From sequence record OR757436.1: a stretch of 64,000 nt of DNA; one strand, given 5' to 3'. Positions within the stretch are counted from its first letter, which is position 1. Every line of letters starts with the position of its first letter. The stretch is from Escherichia phage vB-EcoP-XT73. A program made the translations under genes and the position numbers. Below, piece after piece: positions 1-59,682 of this stretch. Below the pieces are notes generated by a model that was given only the letters and a program-made list of their open reading frames with translations, did no database searches and was not told the DNA's origin.

Positions 1-828
1 ATGACCTTCGGTATTCGATGGGGGGAGGTGGTAGCAATCGGTGGTGGTGTAGGTAGTGGTAAAACACTAATTGCTCACGAACTGGTTGCTCATCTGTGCT
101 TAGAGCATGGTTTTAATGGGGGTGGCTTCTTCTTGGAAGAGAAGGTAGGCATGTCTGTTAAGAACATCGCTGGTAAGTCAGCATCAATTCCTTTCCACCG
201 ACCTGATGTTGAATATGACGAGGAAGATTTGCGTAATGAAGCACTTCGTTATGCAGACAAATTCTTCTTGTATGACAACTTTGGGCAGAACGAATGGGAA
301 GACATTAAACAGTGTATCCGTTTCTGGGTAGTTGAAAACCAGTGTAAGTTCATCATTCTTGATAACATTACCGCTCTGGTATCTCATTTAACACCTTCAG
401 AGATTAACACTGAAATCAGTAAGATTGCTTCCGAGCTTGCTGGTATGTGTAAAGAATTAGACTTTACCGCTTTCGTGCTATCTCACCTTAATGCTCCGGC
501 AGGTGGTGCTCCTCACGAAGAAGGTGGACAGGTACGTGAAGTACAGTTCACTGGCTCTCGTTCTCTTATGCGTTGGTGTCAGTGTATCATTGGCTTTGAG
601 CGTGATAAGCAAGCTGACGGCTTAGCTAAGAACCTCTCAGTCATTCGATTATTGAAAGAACGTAACTACGGTCAGACTGGTGTCTGTTATACTAAGTATA
701 TCAGTGAAACCGGTAGACTTGTAGAAAGGGAAGACTTTGAAGTTGATGAAGATAATCCATTCGTTTTAACTAACGGAGAGGGTGCAGCTTCTCTCGTCAA
801 CCAAGCAGATGGAGCTTCACCGTGGTAA
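1..828 (+). CDS. DnaB-like replicative helicase, C-terminal domain (T7 gp4-like); 5' end lies outside the window
   Basis: Walker A-like GGGVGSGKT and a C-terminal stretch [32 protein letters not shown]...FERDKQ that aligns by eye with the T7 gp4 helicase region (LVICHLKNP...AHEEGRPVSITDLRGSGAL...ERNQQ). Confidence 0.8.
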
Positions 829-1376
829 AGAAAAAGAAAGTGTTTGCATTTGATATCGAAAGTAATGCACTATACGATGACATAACTAAAGTATGGTGTA
901 TTTACATTTTCGATGTTGAAACTGGTGAAAGGTGGGGCTACCGGCCTCACCAAATTGAAGATGGGATTCGTAAACTTACAGAAGCAGATGTACTAGTAGG
1001 TCATAATATTATTGACTTCGACTTACCTGCTCTGAAAAAGATATATCCCTCTTTGATTAAATATAATTTTAACGTCTTTGACACTCTGTGTCTTAGTCGA
1101 TATCTTAAACCTGACCGTATTGGTGACAGTCCTGAGTATCCGAAAGGTGACCCTAGACATGGCCCAAGAGGTCATGGTTTGAAGCAATGGGGTGAGTTCT
1201 TAGAGGAACTTAAAGGAGACTACGGTGAGCAAGAGGAAGCATGGGATGCTTTCACTGAAGATATGTTTACTTATTGTGAACAGGACGTTAACTTAACAGT
1301 TAAGGTTTATAAATACTTGTGTGAACTCACAGGATTTGACCCTTACGACCCACCTTCATTATATTGGAAAATGTAA
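822..1376 (+). CDS. DNA polymerase fragment 1: 3'-5' exonuclease domain (T7 gp5-like N-terminus)
   Basis: [48 protein letters not shown] and YCEQDVNLT match the T7 gp5 exo motifs (DIEANAL, HNGHKYDVPAL, DTLVLSRL, HALEAWGYRLGEMKGEY, YNVQDV). GTG start overlaps the helicase stop. The ORF stops at the exo/pol boundary. Confidence 0.85.
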
Positions 1377-1377
1377 A

Positions 1378-2739
1378 ATGATTGTTATCCCGATTAACCG
1401 AATTGAAGATAAGGTTGCTCAACAACCTGATATCACTGTCGGTCGTCACTTCATTGAACAGCTGATTAACAACAACTTGATTCCAGATGGTATCTGTCCC
1501 ATCATTACTGGTGGGGCTGTTCGTGACGCTGTTCTTAATAACATAGCACCTCATGACATCGATATCTTTATTGTCAGAGGACAGACACCAAGAACTCAAA
1601 ACACTTTCATCCGTCATGAACAGTGGCAAGCTCTTGGGCGTGAGATTGAAAGCAATGTGAAAGAGTGGCTAGAGTCACAAGATATTGAGTATTCATCTCT
1701 TCTTGCTGAAACTACAGATGAACCATATACAGGAACTTCCCAATTAACATTCACTGATATCATTGAATTTCAGTGGCAGGGAACTCGAATCCAATTCATG
1801 TTTAATTATCCCACTTCTATCGAAGAGGTATTGGATAATTTTCCTATGATGTGTCGTGGTGCGATGACCCTTGAAAACCTATTCATGACTCCTCATGGAT
1901 ATTTGGCTATGACCGCTCCCTGTCCAGTGGTTGTTTCTAGTCGTGAAATCAGATATGTTCACAAGAAGTGGCCTAATTCTCAGGTATTAAGATTCTCATC
2001 TCCAGCAGTTGCACATCAATACATGGCCCAAACTCGATACCTTCCCACACCTCAGCCGGTTAGTCATCTGGTCAACGAACGGGGTCAGGTTGCTCTTATT
2101 GAGGATACAACAAGTGCTCAGTATTGTGTTGACCGAGATATGAGTCTATTCTTTGGTATACCTTATGAAGAGATTCAGTTAATGTCGAGTCTTAACGGCT
2201 CTGGTCGGGTTCATGCGTATTGGTCTGAAGGGTTGACAAACTTAACAACTAATACAAGAGGAGATCTCCTTGGTCGGGAAGAGGAACCTAATCGGAACAA
2301 TGTAATTGAAGGGGTGTTTGTAGCCCCTGCAATGCGCCGAGCACAAGAGTCACGAAATCTAAGCTCTACTCGTAGAACATCTTTTGAAGAAACTCTTGGT
2401 GTTACTAGCGATTCATTTGAGCGGTGGTTGTCTAGACGTTCTAATGGTCAATCAAATGGTTTGACTGTTAGCCGTCACCAGTTCTCTGGTCAGAGTTTAG
2501 CTGTTGGTAATAGCAACGCACCTGTTATGGCTGTGTGGACCGATGAAGGTGTGGCCCAAGATGTGGTAAGTAGTCTTGATGTCCCTTCTCATGGTGAATT
2601 AGCTGAGACCGTCAGCCGCAATCTCGCTGATCGGTTTGTTGCTAACAACCCTGAAGTATTAGAGCCTCAAACCCGTACAGTTCGGTTTGCCGATGAAGCG
2701 GGTCGTGGATTTTCTTTTGACATGGAAACAAATAACTAA
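1378..2739 (+). CDS. Pol-beta-superfamily nucleotidyltransferase-domain protein (CCA-adding/poly(A)-polymerase-like head motif) with a low-complexity S/T/R-rich C-terminus
   Basis: Motif PIITGGAVRDAVLNNIAPHDIDIFIV resembles the GGAVRD...DxD signature of class II tRNA nucleotidyltransferases. ATG sits 1 nt after the exo-fragment stop (ATGTAAAATG), suggesting translational coupling. Confidence 0.5.
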   Translation: MIVIPINRIEDKVAQQPDITVGRHFIEQLINNNLIPDGICPIITGGAVRDAVLNNIAPHDIDIFIVRGQTPRTQNTFIRHEQWQALGREIESNVKEWLESQDIEYSSLLAETTDEPYTGTSQLTFTDIIEFQWQGTRIQFMFNYPTSIEEVLDNFPMMCRGAMTLENLFMTPHGYLAMTAPCPVVVSSREIRYVHKKWPNSQVLRFSSPAVAHQYMAQTRYLPTPQPVSHLVNERGQVALIEDTTSAQYCVDRDMSLFFGIPYEEIQLMSSLNGSGRVHAYWSEGLTNLTTNTRGDLLGREEEPNRNNVIEGVFVAPAMRRAQESRNLSSTRRTSFEETLGVTSDSFERWLSRRSNGQSNGLTVSRHQFSGQSLAVGNSNAPVMAVWTDEGVAQDVVSSLDVPSHGELAETVSRNLADRFVANNPEVLEPQTRTVRFADEAGRGFSFDMETNN

Positions 2740-2748
2740 GGAATAAAA

Positions 2749-3282
2749 ATGAGTTTACTAGGAAGTGTTGAACTACACGATGTAATTGATAATGGCTATC
2801 TGGATGCGGAGCATAAGTATGTTAACGCTGCTAGTGTGGATATCCGTATTGGTGATACTATCCTTGTTGAAGAACAGGCTGATGGCATCGTTGATATTGA
2901 TGCGAAAGAAAATCTTCAGTGGAAGGAAGTAAAAATCCCTGAAGAGGGCTTGGTTATCACTCCGGGTCAGTTCTTCTTGGCTCACTCTATGGAGGAGTTT
3001 AACCTTCCAGATAACATCTCAAGCCTGTTTGTTCTGCGTTCGTCTATGGCTCGTTGTGGTTTGAACCACCTTCACGCCGGATGGGCAGATGCAGGATTTA
3101 ACAGCAGTAAGCTGACATTTGAGTTCCATAACGTAACCAAGCATCATAGCTTACGAGTTCGTGCTGGTATGCGTGTTGGTCAGATGGTGATGTTTGAGCA
3201 CTCTCATGCAGGGGAACATTCCTATGCAGTGAAGGGTCGTTATAATAACTCTGAAGGTGTAGTTGCATCTAAAGGTGTGTAA
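2749..3282 (+). CDS. dcd: dCTP deaminase / dUTPase-superfamily protein
   Basis: 177 aa with SVDIRIGD, VITPGQFFLAHSMEEF and RSSMARCGL, typical of dCTP deaminases. Confidence 0.75.
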   Translation: MSLLGSVELHDVIDNGYLDAEHKYVNAASVDIRIGDTILVEEQADGIVDIDAKENLQWKEVKIPEEGLVITPGQFFLAHSMEEFNLPDNISSLFVLRSSMARCGLNHLHAGWADAGFNSSKLTFEFHNVTKHHSLRVRAGMRVGQMVMFEHSHAGEHSYAVKGRYNNSEGVVASKGV

Positions 3283-3489
3283 ATGACTGAAGAAGAGTTC
3301 CAAGAACTGAAAGGTTTGACTACCGAGGTTCAATTAAAAGCTATTACTTTTGGTCGAGCATGTCATCAATTTGATATATGCGTCGAAAGCAGTAAAGAAG
3401 CTTGTAAGAGCTATATGGATAAGAAGCACCTTGAATGGGGTAAAGCCTCTAACGATCTTTATAACTATATGAAGGGTTTAGTAAAATGA
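3283..3489 (+). CDS. hypothetical protein
   Basis: 68-aa ORF tightly packed between neighbours. Confidence 0.4.
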   Translation: MTEEEFQELKGLTTEVQLKAITFGRACHQFDICVESSKEACKSYMDKKHLEWGKASNDLYNYMKGLVK

Positions 3490-3683
3490 AAAAGTGGATT
3501 GTTCGTGTACATGATGATACGACTGGAGACTTGGTAGCTGTAGATTTTATTAACACTCGAGAACACGCCCGTAGGGTCAAAAACCAATACAAGTCTACTT
3601 TTAGACTCAATAAGGTTACAATAGGAAAAGCTATTGTGAATAACGAAGGTGCTCTTTTTGCCAACAGCAAGGTTTATTATTAA
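3486..3683 (+). CDS. small protein, paralogue family A
   Basis: Shares W-I/V-R-V ... F-T-R-x-x-A-R-x-x-K ... K-V-x-Y-Y pattern with the ORFs at 3683, 3892, 6442 and 13529. Confidence 0.5.
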   Translation: MKKWIVRVHDDTTGDLVAVDFINTREHARRVKNQYKSTFRLNKVTIGKAIVNNEGALFANSKVYY

Positions 3684-3892
3684 TGAGACCAATCACTATG
3701 AGACAGTTTTGGTTAGCAAAGATTAAGTGGGCATCAGGTGGTATGACTATGACTGCACTTCCTACTCGTCAACAGGCTCGAGATTTTAAAAAGACTATGC
3801 TTACTGGTGACGTGGTCAATAGTATCAGTATCCATAAGGCCAAGGAGTATTCTTCTGGTCGTGTTTATATCAGCGGAAAGGTACATTACTAA
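3683..3892 (+). CDS. small protein, paralogue family A
   Basis: Tandem paralogue; start overlaps the upstream stop. Confidence 0.5.
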   Translation: MRPITMRQFWLAKIKWASGGMTMTALPTRQQARDFKKTMLTGDVVNSISIHKAKEYSSGRVYISGKVHY

Positions 3893-4101
3893 TGAAAAAG
3901 ATGTGGGCGATTCGTGTTGTTTGGGATCTTGATCAACACACGAGAAAAGATAGCATCAAATTGTTTGACACTCGCAAAGAGGCTCGTATTGCTAAGAAAC
4001 AGTTGAAGACTCTGGGCACAATAGTAAAAAGCGCTGATATACATCGCTGGTACGAAGACCCTAACTCGGGTTCTTTTATGTCTAAAGTAATTTATTACTG
4101 A
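3892..4101 (+). CDS. small protein, paralogue family A
   Basis: MKKMWAIRVVWD...FDTRKEARIAKKQLK...KVIYY; third tandem copy. Confidence 0.5.
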   Translation: MKKMWAIRVVWDLDQHTRKDSIKLFDTRKEARIAKKQLKTLGTIVKSADIHRWYEDPNSGSFMSKVIYY

Positions 4102-4125
4102 TTGGTAGTAGATATGGTAACTCTC

Positions 4126-4134
4126 AAATGTATA
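4126..4134 (+). promoter_or_regulatory. AATGTATA promoter-like motif upstream of the 4174 gene
   Basis: aAATGTATAtagag about 40 bp upstream of the ATG; same core as the motifs near 9156 and 15352. Confidence 0.4.
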
Positions 4135-4173
4135 TAGAGTACAATAAGAATTTGTATTTTACAGGAGAGAGTT

Positions 4174-4500
4174 ATGTTAGATTTGAGTAAAGTGGCCCCG
4201 CCCACTGAAGAGATTACAAAATCCAAGGTGATGCAACAGTTTTATCATCGTGATATGCTTGGTCGCTTTATCAAGAATCGTGATGTTGTTGCTTGGTCTA
4301 TTGGTAATCAGGGATATCTGTTGAAGGTTCTTCAGGTTACAGGTTCAACTGCTAAGCGAGTTAAGGTGTATGACCCTGAAATGGGGCGTTCTAAGTCAGT
4401 AGACCCGCAGAACTGCATCGTAATTACCCAGCAGGTGATAGCAAATCTAGAAAGAAATGTAGCAAACTCTACTGAGTTAGAAGGAGAAGACCCTAAGTGA
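4174..4500 (+). CDS. hypothetical protein
   Basis: 108-aa ORF with AGGAGAGAG RBS upstream. Confidence 0.5.
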   Translation: MLDLSKVAPPTEEITKSKVMQQFYHRDMLGRFIKNRDVVAWSIGNQGYLLKVLQVTGSTAKRVKVYDPEMGRSKSVDPQNCIVITQQVIANLERNVANSTELEGEDPK

Positions 4501-4990
4501 TTCCAAAGGAATTGGAAGGGAAGATTGATGTAACAGAGGATGGTAGAGTATTTACTATAAAAAGTGGAAGGTTTTAACCCTCCACACTAATGGTGCCTAT
4601 TACAGAGTTACTATTTACTTTCCTGAAGGATTAAAGAATTTCTATGTCCACAGGCTGGTTGCTAGTAAGTACATACCGAACCCTGATAATCTTCCATGTG
4701 TCAACCATAAGGATGGCAATAAACTTAACAATCATAAAGATAATCTTGAATGGTGTACCCACCGAGAAAACTCTCAACATGCATCATCATTAGGTCTGAT
4801 GGTACAGAGGTTTGGAGAAGACAATCCGCAGTCTAAACTTACTCTAGAAGATGTAGAGTACTGTAGGAGAGTTTATATCCCTCGAGATAAAGAGTTTGGA
4901 GGCTCTGCCCTTGCAAGACGTTTTGGTGTCTCTCAGCAAGTGATATCAAAAGTTCTACTTAATCAAACTTGGAGGGAATATAATGCATAA
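4497..4990 (+). pseudogene. HNH homing endonuclease, interrupted by a frameshift at an A5 run (about 4559-4563)
   Basis: Frame 3 from GTG 4497 gives MIPKELEGKIDVTEDGRVFTIKSGRF then stops; the -1 frame continues YYRVTIYFPEGLKNFYVHRLVASKYIPNPDNLPCVNHKDGNKLNNHKDNLEWCTHRENSQHA to 4990. No in-frame start precedes the HNH core. Confidence 0.5.
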
Positions 4991-5546
4991 GAATGTTTTT
5001 GATTTACCTGAGATTGGTCGTGCCGAATATAATATGTTAGACCGATCAGAGCTTTCAATCTCTCGCCTTGAAACAATGCAGGGTATGATTAGTGGAAACA
5101 GCCTAGAACACATCCTGAGCTGCTTACAAGCTAACATAGAACTCTTGCATATCAAAGCTAAAAACTACCATTGGAACGTCTCTGGTGCAGGATTTCAGGG
5201 TGTTCATGGTATGTTTGATGAGCTGGAAGATTACGCACGACAAGTAGGAGATCGTATTGCTGAACGTATGCGTTACCACTGTGTTAAAGTGGACGCCACA
5301 GCAGCCAATTATCTCTCCCATGCTTGGTTCTCAGAGGGTAATGCTGACCTAGATATGGACGGTATGCTCTCTGATATGTGCATGACCTTGATGTGTATTA
5401 TTGAGAAGATGGATGAGTTTGATGGTGATTTAGCCACTTATCCAGTTGATCAGAGTATGCTTCAAGAAATTAATGAAGGTCTTGGCAAGTATTGCTACTT
5501 CGTCAAGAGCAACATGTCCCACTCAAGTGGCGATGTGTCTTACTAA
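4983..5546 (+). CDS. dps: Dps-like ferritin-family protein
   Basis: LHIKAKNYHWNVSGAGFQGVHGMFDELEDYARQVGDRIAERM aligns with the E. coli Dps ferroxidase region ([25 protein letters not shown]...DTMAERA), including the His/Asp/Glu positions. Confidence 0.7.
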   Translation: MHKNVFDLPEIGRAEYNMLDRSELSISRLETMQGMISGNSLEHILSCLQANIELLHIKAKNYHWNVSGAGFQGVHGMFDELEDYARQVGDRIAERMRYHCVKVDATAANYLSHAWFSEGNADLDMDGMLSDMCMTLMCIIEKMDEFDGDLATYPVDQSMLQEINEGLGKYCYFVKSNMSHSSGDVSY

Positions 5547-5608
5547 AAACCTCCGCCCTGTCTCCTAACCCGAGGTGGGGCGAACTTATTTATAAGGATA
5601 TAGATATA

Positions 5609-5787
5609 TGTTATCAGCAATCGTATGGGGTATTTGGGCTGTCTTTATTGGTGGTGGTATCTATTGGGCTTCTGGCAAGCTTATTGAAGAAACTCCTGAC
5701 AAGAAAGGTGAGATTCAAACAGCATCAACCATCATGGTTGTCGTAGCTGTTGTTATCCCATTCCTGCTTCACCTCCTGACTGCATAA
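5609..5787 (+). CDS. small two-segment membrane protein
   Basis: 59 aa (MLSAIVWGIWAVFIGGGIYWASGK...VVVAVVIPFLLHLL) with two hydrophobic segments; below the ORF-track length cutoff. Confidence 0.35.
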
Positions 5788-5796
5788 GGGTTTGAT

Positions 5797-5982
5797 ATGA
5801 TTTCACTGATTGTGTGGGCCGTGTGGTCGTTAATAGTTGGTACTGTTATATATAAAGCTCGAAATTTAGCAATTAAAGAAAACCCAGCAGAAGAGGATGT
5901 TAAAGCTATCAAGCTAGGCAGTGTTGTTCTGGTACATTTTGCTATAACACTACCTCTTGTTATTATTCTTTGTATGCTATAA
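5797..5982 (+). CDS. small two-segment membrane protein, paralogue of 5609
   Basis: MISLIVWAVWSLIVGTVIYKA...LVHFAITLPLVIILCML; same hydrophobic pattern as the upstream ORF. Confidence 0.4.
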   Translation: MISLIVWAVWSLIVGTVIYKARNLAIKENPAEEDVKAIKLGSVVLVHFAITLPLVIILCML

Positions 5983-6172
5983 GGAAACCAAAGAGTGAAA
6001 CTAAACCTACCTGAAGAATTACAAGCACATGCCATTATCGTTAGTGGCTGTGTGATGGGTCTTGGTCAAACAAAGAAGATTGCTCATGACTTAGCAAAAG
6101 GTCAGTATAAATCTTTTATTGTTGTTCCTGCTACCCAACGTCATATCAACCTGTTTATTAACAAGGAATAGA

Positions 6173-6445
6173 ATGTCTAAAGTGATTAAGTTTTATAGCG
6201 ATCAGTGTGCTCCATGTAAAGCAATGGCTCCTACCTTTGAGAAGGTTGTTAAGGAGTTCGATGTAGAAGTAGAAGAGATTAACATCCTTGAAGGTGATGG
6301 TCGTGAACAAGCTGTTAAGTATGGTGTAAGAAGCATCCCTGCTTTCGTTGTACCTGACCGTAATAGTGGTGCACACTATAGTCTCTCTGGTATGCAGACC
6401 GAAGCAAACCTGAAAGCATTCTTAACTACTGCCCTAGGTGTTTGA
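6173..6445 (+). CDS. thioredoxin
   Basis: FYSDQCAPCKAMAPTFEKV...KYGVRSIPAFVV aligns with the thioredoxin CxxC active site and the KYGIRGIPT strand. Start chosen at the internal ATG preceded by AAGGAA. Confidence 0.7.
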   Translation: MSKVIKFYSDQCAPCKAMAPTFEKVVKEFDVEVEEINILEGDGREQAVKYGVRSIPAFVVPDRNSGAHYSLSGMQTEANLKAFLTTALGV

Positions 6446-6651
6446 TTATGAAAAAATATTGGACGGTGGTATATTACCTCTACCAAGACCCGGCTATACC
6501 TGTTACAGAGCACTTTGCTACTCGTAAAGATGCTCGCCGTTTTAAGAAGGCTCTTAAGATGGCCCCAAAGATTTATAGTAAAGTAAGCTTACATAAATCA
6601 ACATTGTCAGAGATGGGAACCTTAGTGGTTTATTATGTAAAAGAATATTAA
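6442..6651 (+). CDS. small protein, paralogue family A
   Basis: MIMKKYWTVVYY...FATRKDARRFKKALK...LVVYY. Confidence 0.45.
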   Translation: MIMKKYWTVVYYLYQDPAIPVTEHFATRKDARRFKKALKMAPKIYSKVSLHKSTLSEMGTLVVYYVKEY

Positions 6652-6666
6652 TAAGGAAATTCACGG

Positions 6667-7323
6667 ATGAATGAACAATTACAAGCAACATTAATCGAAG
6701 CTATGGGAAGTGATCGTAGCGTAGTAAACGCAGCTCGAGTTTCCTTTGGCGTAACCCGTGAAGGTGATTTAAATGAACGTGATGAACGTCTCATCAACTT
6801 CCTCGCAAGAGAGAAGCATGTTACTCCATTCCGACACCCACAAGTCAGTTTCCGATGCAAAGCACCTATCGCAATTGCGAGACAGTTGGGCAAGCATCAG
6901 GTTGGATTCTCGTGGAACGAAATGTCCCGGCGGTATAAAGATGGAGCAGTTGAAGTCTTCATCCCTAAAGAGATTTTTGCGAGACCTTCGGACCTCCATG
7001 CAGGTTCAGGGGTTCAACTCATCGATGGAGAACGAGCTGAAGCATTAATGTTGATTAACGATGCATACGAAGCTTCTCTAGCAGCATATGACAAGTTGAT
7101 TGAATTCGTTGCACCAGAACAAGCCCGATTTGTTCTTCCTCAGGGAATGATCACTGAGTGGGTGTGGACTGGTTCTTTGTATGGCTGGTTTGAGTTGTGT
7201 CGTCAGCGACTATCCTCCCATGCTCAGTATGAAGTTCGAGTGTTTGCTCAATCTCTGGATGAAGAGATGGCTAAACTCTACCCAATCTCGTGGGCAGCTC
7301 TGAAGAAAACTTTGGAGAGTTAA
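6667..7323 (+). CDS. thyX: flavin-dependent thymidylate synthase (ThyX)-like
   Basis: 218 aa with HVTPFRHPQVSF and SWNEMSRRY segments resembling ThyX RHR and S-x-R-Y motifs; sits in the nucleotide-metabolism cluster. Confidence 0.55.
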   Translation: MNEQLQATLIEAMGSDRSVVNAARVSFGVTREGDLNERDERLINFLAREKHVTPFRHPQVSFRCKAPIAIARQLGKHQVGFSWNEMSRRYKDGAVEVFIPKEIFARPSDLHAGSGVQLIDGERAEALMLINDAYEASLAAYDKLIEFVAPEQARFVLPQGMITEWVWTGSLYGWFELCRQRLSSHAQYEVRVFAQSLDEEMAKLYPISWAALKKTLES

Positions 7324-59607: not shown

Positions 59608-59682
59608 GTCCCTATAGTTAAAAGGATATAACAGATTTCTTCTAAAAATCCATTCTAGGTTCGAGTCCTAGTGGGGACGCCA
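59608..59682 (+). tRNA. tRNA-Arg (anticodon TCT)
   Basis: Hand-folded cloverleaf: acceptor gtcccta/tggggac (one G-U), D stem gtta/taac with GG in the loop, anticodon stem gattt/aaatc with loop cTTCTaa, T stem ctagg/cctag with loop ttcgagt, discriminator G and encoded CCA. Confidence 0.75.

Follow-up and report, generated by a model that had tools for sequence, protein, structure and literature searches.

Genes of the Dps family have been annotated in phiEco32-like coliphages since 2008. In the RefSeq record of phiEco32 the product of phi32_67 (YP_001671812) is described as "DNA binding protein; member of the Dps family", and CDS67 of phage SU10 "contains a DPS domain" and was among the few genes common to all five C3 phages sequenced by that time (PMC4281155). 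The SU10 protein has been found by mass spectrometry (6 peptides, 35.8% coverage) in a PEG precipitate prepared with no CsCl step, in which DNA polymerase and thioredoxin were present as well (PMC4281155). As this sample was not CsCl-purified, the detection is evidence of expression and not of virion membership. Dps-like genes have also been noted in Lactobacillus phages (PMC6669764) and in the gut "Gratiaviridae" and "Flandersviridae" (PMC8008677), and the function of the Dps homologue of Proteus phage Privateer is called unverified by its authors (PMC7881722). The literature searched yielded no study in which a phage Dps had been examined biochemically or genetically.

We have analyzed a stretch of 64,000 nt from Escherichia phage vB-EcoP-XT73 (OR757436.1; below, the window), in which an earlier note, made from the sequence alone, had described a phage-encoded Dps-like ferritin (Table 1). 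The region shows 94–98% DNA identity to Kuravirus Escherichia phages, that is, phiEco32-like C3 prolate podophages, and the protein is identical to that of phage XT32 (100%), with 98 and 97% identity to the SU10 and phiEco32 proteins, respectively. The likeness to gp67 of phiEco32 and SU10 extends over all 187 residues, the key residues are identical, and the genes are placed alike, following gp68 and preceding thioredoxin and ThyX; in XT73, however, a frameshifted HNH gene is inserted directly upstream of the Dps gene.

As the records and papers on phiEco32 and SU10 already name the Dps family, the identification was known before, and as annotation it adds nothing to the entry for phiEco32 gp67. 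The interest of the gene rests on its physiology, on the N-terminal extension, and on a possible association with the virion. The earlier note regarded it as an unusual accessory gene, a view that does not hold: the gene is conserved in all phiEco32-like C3 podophages, and gp67 is on record as a Dps family member (PMC4281155, PMC7881722). All related C3 podophages carry homologues, in each case next to nucleotide-metabolism genes, and hence this is a conserved gene of the lineage.

Table 1. Features of the XT73 Dps locus (positions in the window) and Dps-containing head modules of three viral contigs (positions in the respective contig)
Feature	Position	Strand	Details
Candidate gp36-sigma promoter AAATGTATA	4126–4134	+	Matches phiEco32 element tAATGTAtA; upstream of gp68 homologue
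gp68 homologue	4174–4500	+	108 aa, no family match; first gene of the probable operon
HNH homing-endonuclease gene	4497–4990	+	Free-standing, frameshifted; inserted between gp68 homologue and Dps
Shine-Dalgarno GGAGGG	4971–4976	+	Strong site, 6 nt 5' of Dps ATG; read from sequence
Dps-like mini-ferritin CDS	4983–5546	+	ATG start, 187 aa plus stop; orthologue of phiEco32 gp67 and SU10 gp67
Kuravirus-specific N-terminal extension	4983–5117	+	Residues 1–45; alignments, model
Dps four-helix-bundle core (predicted)	5118–5516	+	Residues 46–178; AlphaFold2 model and Foldseek
His63 and Trp64 codons	5169–5174	+	Ferroxidase ligand and conserved Trp (E. coli H51, W52); invariant
His75 to Asp79 codons	5205–5219	+	Second His ligand and conserved Asp (E. 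coli H63, D67); invariant
Asp90 to Glu94 codons	5250–5264	+	Carboxylate ligands from two-fold partner subunit (E. coli D78, E82); invariant
Terminator-like hairpin (tentative)	5554–5582	+	11 pairs (7 G-C), weak T tract; just 3' of Dps stop
L019, head module	195–7228		Order: portal, minor head protein, Dps
L025, head module	475–6915		Dps between head maturation protease and large terminase
L031, head module	472–7248		Dps between head maturation protease and large terminase

Family Membership and Selection

The assignment to the Dps-like ferritins is borne out by sequence matches, by the active-site residues and by the predicted fold. In profile searches, proposed in the earlier note as a check, the XT73 protein scores above the gathering threshold of Pfam family PF00210 (Ferritin; 30.7 bits against 24.5, E 3.5e-7) and matches PHROG 3636 with E 4e-55, residues 35–180 covering positions 2–149 of the 149-position profile. 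The motifs quoted in that note are all present, YHWNV at residues 62–66, VHGMFDELEDY at 74–84 and DRIAERM at 90–96. A phmmer search against PDB sequences returned Dps proteins nearly throughout, the top one being Dps2 of Mycobacterium smegmatis (E 2e-9).

Still, narrower models are not matched: the protein reaches 35 bits with the NCBIfam model for E. coli-type Dps (equivalog NF006975), whose cutoff is 114, and is likewise far under the cutoffs of the haloarchaeal and cyanobacterial DpsA models of NCBIfam. Among 1.84 billion cluster representatives, 606 match at E≤0.001, 13 at E≤1e-10 and just two at E≤1e-30. By these comparisons, the XT73 protein is a divergent outlier within the Dps family, which weighs against reading it as a functional mini-ferritin.

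The best solved matches are M. smegmatis Dps2 (2z90, 4m35), Bacillus subtilis MrgA (2chp) and B. anthracis Dlp-2 (1jig), which share with the phage protein the order of helices, including helix BC, and the ferroxidase ligands (E 2e-9; TM-score on target about 0.8–0.9). The identity to them, however, is only 22–27%, and the phage protein differs in having an acidic 45-residue extension, a DMCMTLMC stretch and a C-terminal Tyr.

With E. coli Dps the protein shares the family and the ferroxidase residues, but the alignment is limited to 41 residues (39% identity), and the Lys-rich N-terminus of the host protein is absent. Hence the gene, termed a phage copy in the earlier note, is not a copy of host dps. 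Recent capture from the host is ruled out by this short alignment, the low equivalog score, the absence of a Lys-rich N-terminus and a GC content with no anomaly relative to the neighboring genes; it is further disfavored by the closest solved relatives being actinobacterial and Bacillus Dps proteins.

Comparison with the phiEco32 orthologue yields dN/dS of 0.077 for the whole gene and 0.014 for the Dps core, so strong purifying selection acts on the gene. Positions 4983–5546 thus contain a genuine gene and not a chance ORF.

Ferroxidase Center and Predicted Fold

H63, W64, H75, D79, D90 and E94 form invariant columns in alignments comprising 25 database relatives, including those from Kuravirus, four homologues from other C3 podophages, and the Dps proteins of Listeria and E. 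coli. By the checked residue numbering of the latter two, the equivalent residues are H51/W52/H63/D67/D78/E82 in E. coli and H31/W32/H43/D47/D58/E62 in Listeria. A lack of conserved His/Asp/Glu metal ligands had been named at the outset as the observation that would count against a Dps-like ferritin. Since every one of these ligands is present and invariant, no such objection arises, and a pseudo-enzyme that has lost its ligands is ruled out as well.

An AlphaFold2 model built from a 26-sequence alignment has mean pLDDT of 81, with the core blocks at 79–96. Modelled helices comprise residues 41–65 (A), 72–98 (B), 125–150 (C) and 154–176 (D), with a short helix BC at 107–112. All 50 of the 50 matches listed by Foldseek against PDB are Dps or Dps-like proteins (TM-score on target 0.73–0.90). 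The predicted topology is thus that of Dps, a four-helix bundle whose long crossover loop holds a short BC helix, and the bundle anticipated in the earlier note is seen in the model, helix BC included.

The best functional analogue is Dps (Flp) of Listeria innocua, which is likewise acidic, has no basic tail and carries identical ligands. The acidic pore residues of this protein are partly conserved, D150 aligning with D121 and D156 lying near D130; on the other hand, the identity is 21%, and the Listeria protein has no N-terminal extension. Listeria Dps guards DNA by removing iron and H2O2, and does so with no binding to DNA.

By analogy with characterized Dps proteins, the phage protein would form a hollow dodecamer of 23 symmetry. 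Ferroxidase sites between two subunits, with H63, H75 and D79 contributed by one of them and D90 and E94 by the partner, would take up Fe(II), which would be oxidized there, preferably by H2O2, with Fe(III) being kept as a mineral core. As iron is stored and H2O2 consumed, both reactants of the Fenton reaction would be removed at a time of rapid phage DNA and dNTP production. This would protect replicating phage DNA, shielded chemically and not by coating, and also the redox-sensitive enzymes of nucleotide synthesis encoded alongside, namely thioredoxin and ThyX in XT73 and, in related phages, anaerobic ribonucleotide reductase too. We find it reasonably probable that the product is a functional Dps-type mini-ferritin of middle infection that sequesters iron and detoxifies peroxide during phage DNA synthesis. 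Behind this reading stand the family assignment, the complete ligands, the predicted fold, purifying selection, the conserved gene order and the expression of the SU10 orthologue, while the assembly, the enzymatic activity and the benefit to the phage are inferred. This mini-ferritin model leaves unaccounted for the 45-residue extension, the Cys/Met-rich helix C and the C-terminal Tyr.

In every phiEco32-like prolate podophage a mini-ferritin with an intact ferroxidase center has been retained beside nucleotide-synthesis genes, and purifying selection on it is strong. The gene bears on the question of whether iron and peroxide chemistry in infected cells is under active control by lytic phages.

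Gene Neighborhood and Expression Signals

The location of the gene in a block of replication and nucleotide-metabolism genes, as proposed in the earlier note, is confirmed by homologues on both sides. Upstream of it we find homologues of primase/helicase, exonuclease, nucleotidyltransferase and dCTP deaminase, and downstream, of thioredoxin, ThyX and PhoH.

A gp36-dependent promoter (consensus tAATGTAtA) has been mapped experimentally upstream of gene 68 of phiEco32 (PMC8948821), and thus the Dps gene of XT73 probably belongs to a middle operon, gp68 followed by Dps. The intergenic region before the gp68 homologue differs from that of phiEco32 at two positions, both outside AAATGTATA. Across the window the TAATGTATA motif is found at chance level, and the assignment of the promoter therefore rests on its position upstream of gp68 and on homology; with this basis, AAATGTATA probably serves as the middle promoter from which the Dps gene and the rest of its operon are transcribed. 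A scan for sigma-70 promoters near the Dps gene yielded nothing above chance. The hairpin downstream of the stop codon has a fold energy of –15.9 kcal/mol and a z-score of only –1.5, and since this energy is unexceptional, its role as a terminator is tentative.

The HNH ORF between the two genes overlaps the Dps start by 8 nt with its stop. Relative to phage XT18, whose counterpart is annotated as a 164-aa HNH homing endonuclease, the XT73 gene is disrupted by the loss of 1 nt from a run of T near 4572, and so it is either a pseudogene or the product of a homopolymer sequencing error. Among the phage records searched, the insertion is present only in XT18 and Bas94.

Several small ORFs surround the locus. 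Four of them, of 65–69 aa, are paralogous (3486–3683, 3683–3892, 3892–4101 and 6442–6651), three lying in tandem just upstream of the gp68–Dps operon. They have in common an N-terminal MKK.W, a TR..AR..K motif and a C-terminal Tyr, with no Pfam match; the proteins of the Dps clade likewise end in a conserved Tyr. Just downstream of the Dps gene are adjacent ORFs of 59 and 61 aa (5608–5787 and 5797–5982), also with no Pfam match, whose products are hydrophobic, membrane-like and mutually similar (MLSAIVWGIWAVFIGGGIYW... and MISLIVWAVWSLIVGTVIYK...). A single tRNA-Arg gene (anticodon TCT) is present on the plus strand of the window at 59608–59682.

The homologues of other C3 podophages, Salmonella phages SE131 and 7-11, Proteus phages Privateer and J3S, Cronobacter phage GAP52 and Aeromonas phage LAh_9, form one clade with the XT73 protein at 29–45% identity, retain the ligands, and share the nucleotide-metabolism neighborhood. 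They differ in being 146–156 aa long, with neither the N-terminal extension nor the C-terminal tail, and in adjoining anaerobic ribonucleotide reductase (RNR) genes, which the XT73 gene does not. In SE131, J3S, GAP52 and LAh_9 the Dps homologue lies among genes for thioredoxin, ThyX, dCTP deaminase and PhoH, and in these same four phages (loci L003–L006) NrdD/NrdG are found beside the shorter Dps gene. The recurring neighborhood of Dps, thioredoxin and RNR may indicate a link of dNTP synthesis to redox or iron chemistry.

Such a link could also be read as iron supply: the protein, instead of protecting, would buffer or donate iron for iron-dependent nucleotide synthesis by host class I RNR or by the phage Fe-S activase NrdG. 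The conserved adjacency to thioredoxin, ThyX and dCTP deaminase, together with NrdD/NrdG in Grimontviridae and Lahexavirus, would fit this role. The case for it, however, is drawn entirely from gene neighborhoods, in Kuraviruses no NrdD/NrdG adjoins the Dps gene, and to our knowledge Dps proteins are not established as iron donors; we regard iron donation as unlikely.

Charge, DNA Binding and the N-Terminal Extension

The whole protein has pI of 4.73 and a net charge of –14.8, with –3.3 for residues 1–45 and –1.2 for the C-terminal tail, and in this charge computation neither terminus carries the Lys/Arg-rich basic tail of the DNA-binding Dps subclass. In E. coli Dps the Lys-rich N-terminus is required for DNA binding, and tail-less acidic Dps proteins, such as that of Listeria, do not bind DNA. 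The earlier note described Dps as a protein that both binds DNA and sequesters iron; for XT73 the family part of this description stands, and the DNA-binding half does not fit the acidic protein and tails.

A protein coating or compacting phage or host DNA, in the manner of Dps in stationary-phase E. coli, might be expected from the "DNA binding protein" label, which is used for phiEco32 and its relatives and is also the family label of PHROG 3636, and from the location of the gene among replication genes. Yet with a pI of 4.7, a net charge of –15, two acidic tails and no Lys-rich one, we consider DNA binding or condensation very improbable; as the protein is strongly acidic and has no basic tail, the label itself is doubtful. 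The pI and the acidic tails are those expected of an iron-attracting shell and not of a DNA binder, in line with the proposed role in iron and peroxide removal.

The N-terminal extension opens with a conserved MHNNxFDLP, continues with a variable linker and contains a helix at approximately residues 19–37 with R28, L29 and M32; the helix has low confidence in the AlphaFold2 model, and R28 is invariant. It is less constrained than the core (dN/dS 0.34 vs. 0.014), and is absent from the 146–156-aa homologues of SE131, J3S, GAP52 and LAh_9. Among all ORFs of at least 40 aa in the window, only Dps itself has [FYW][DN]L[PA] near the N-terminus, and in these ORFs there is no sign of a common targeting tag. 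Further clade-specific features are the Cys/Met-rich DMCMTLMC on helix C and a nearly invariant C-terminal Tyr.

Dps Genes in Other Viruses and Association With the Virion

A tblastn search with the XT73 protein identified 138 out of 50,697 phage records, from Kuravirus, other C3 podophages and some Streptomyces and Synechococcus phages. With Listeria Dps as the query, 171 phage records were found, mainly of Streptomyces, Lactobacillus, Campylobacter and Clostridium phages. Dps-like genes are thus uncommon in phages, yet not limited to the phiEco32 group.

Moreover, in IMG/VR contigs unrelated to Kuravirus we observe Dps-like genes with all ferroxidase ligands inside head-morphogenesis modules. 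The layout of L019, L025 and L031 (Table 1) suggests a connection between capsid assembly and some phage Dps proteins. Phage proteins of 333–763 aa that are named "Prohead protease" in BFVD contain a region with a Dps-like fold. For the IMG/VR loci and the long matches of the representative search, Pfam gives the Ferritin domain only, with no protease–Dps fusion, and PHROGs yield one weak match, of P0133 to a head maturation protease family (E 0.0018). The 267-aa and 204-aa "fusions" of L025 and L031 overlap the upstream ORF and so are start-codon artefacts, and P0091, a cadherin-repeat protein of 4104 aa with nine matched stretches, is a spurious match. A literature search on Dps and prohead protease found no relevant papers. 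In two further contigs, L027 and L028 (3887–4879), a viral protein of 330–373 aa has a central Ferritin/Dps domain at residues 120–257, followed by a C-terminal region of about 115 residues with no assigned domain.

These genes raise the alternative that the phage mini-ferritin is associated with the virion, inside or on the capsid, travelling with the genome and protecting DNA or acting on entry, like an encapsulin cargo. Apart from the intact ligands in the head modules of the three unrelated contigs and the Dps-like fold in the BFVD proteins, it would account for the detection of the Privateer homologue by mass spectrometry in virions after a CsCl step gradient and equilibrium centrifugation; the supplements to that paper hold no spectral counts for Dps (PMC7881722). 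Several observations stand against it. In XT73 the gene is in the middle nucleotide-metabolism cluster, outside the structural module; the fusions to protease are confirmed neither by Pfam nor by PHROGs; and the Privateer homologue is devoid of the Kuravirus N-terminal extension, which therefore is no general targeting signal. Iron-loaded Dps cages, moreover, could co-band with phage in CsCl. The SU10 detection comes from the PEG precipitate with DNA polymerase and thioredoxin described above, and when the major gel bands of purified SU10 virions were analyzed by mass spectrometry, gp20–24 alone were assigned as internal or ejection proteins, gp67 not being mentioned (PMC9509320).

Given the Privateer detection and the Dps genes of head modules, we keep a capsid-associated role as a minority reading, one that seems quite unlikely for XT73. 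There is similarly little chance that Dps of the C3 prolate podophages is a true virion component, with the MHNNxFDLP extension being its docking element in Kuravirus; if true, phage capsids would be natural counterparts of ferritin-loaded encapsulins. The mini-ferritin of middle infection remains the reading that we favor.

Annotation of Orthologues

Many GenBank records of Kuravirus phages label the Dps orthologue "integrase" (for example, OR757435.1, 56388–56858, and protein P0005 of IME267), and we find no sequence support for this label. It is a propagated mis-annotation, and the "DNA binding protein" label seems to reflect the name of the family rather than any experiment; in all likelihood neither label is right. 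An erroneous integrase entry could flag lytic phages as temperate, which matters for the evaluation of phages for therapy. In the XT32 record the Dps orthologue, besides being labelled "integrase", has a truncated start.
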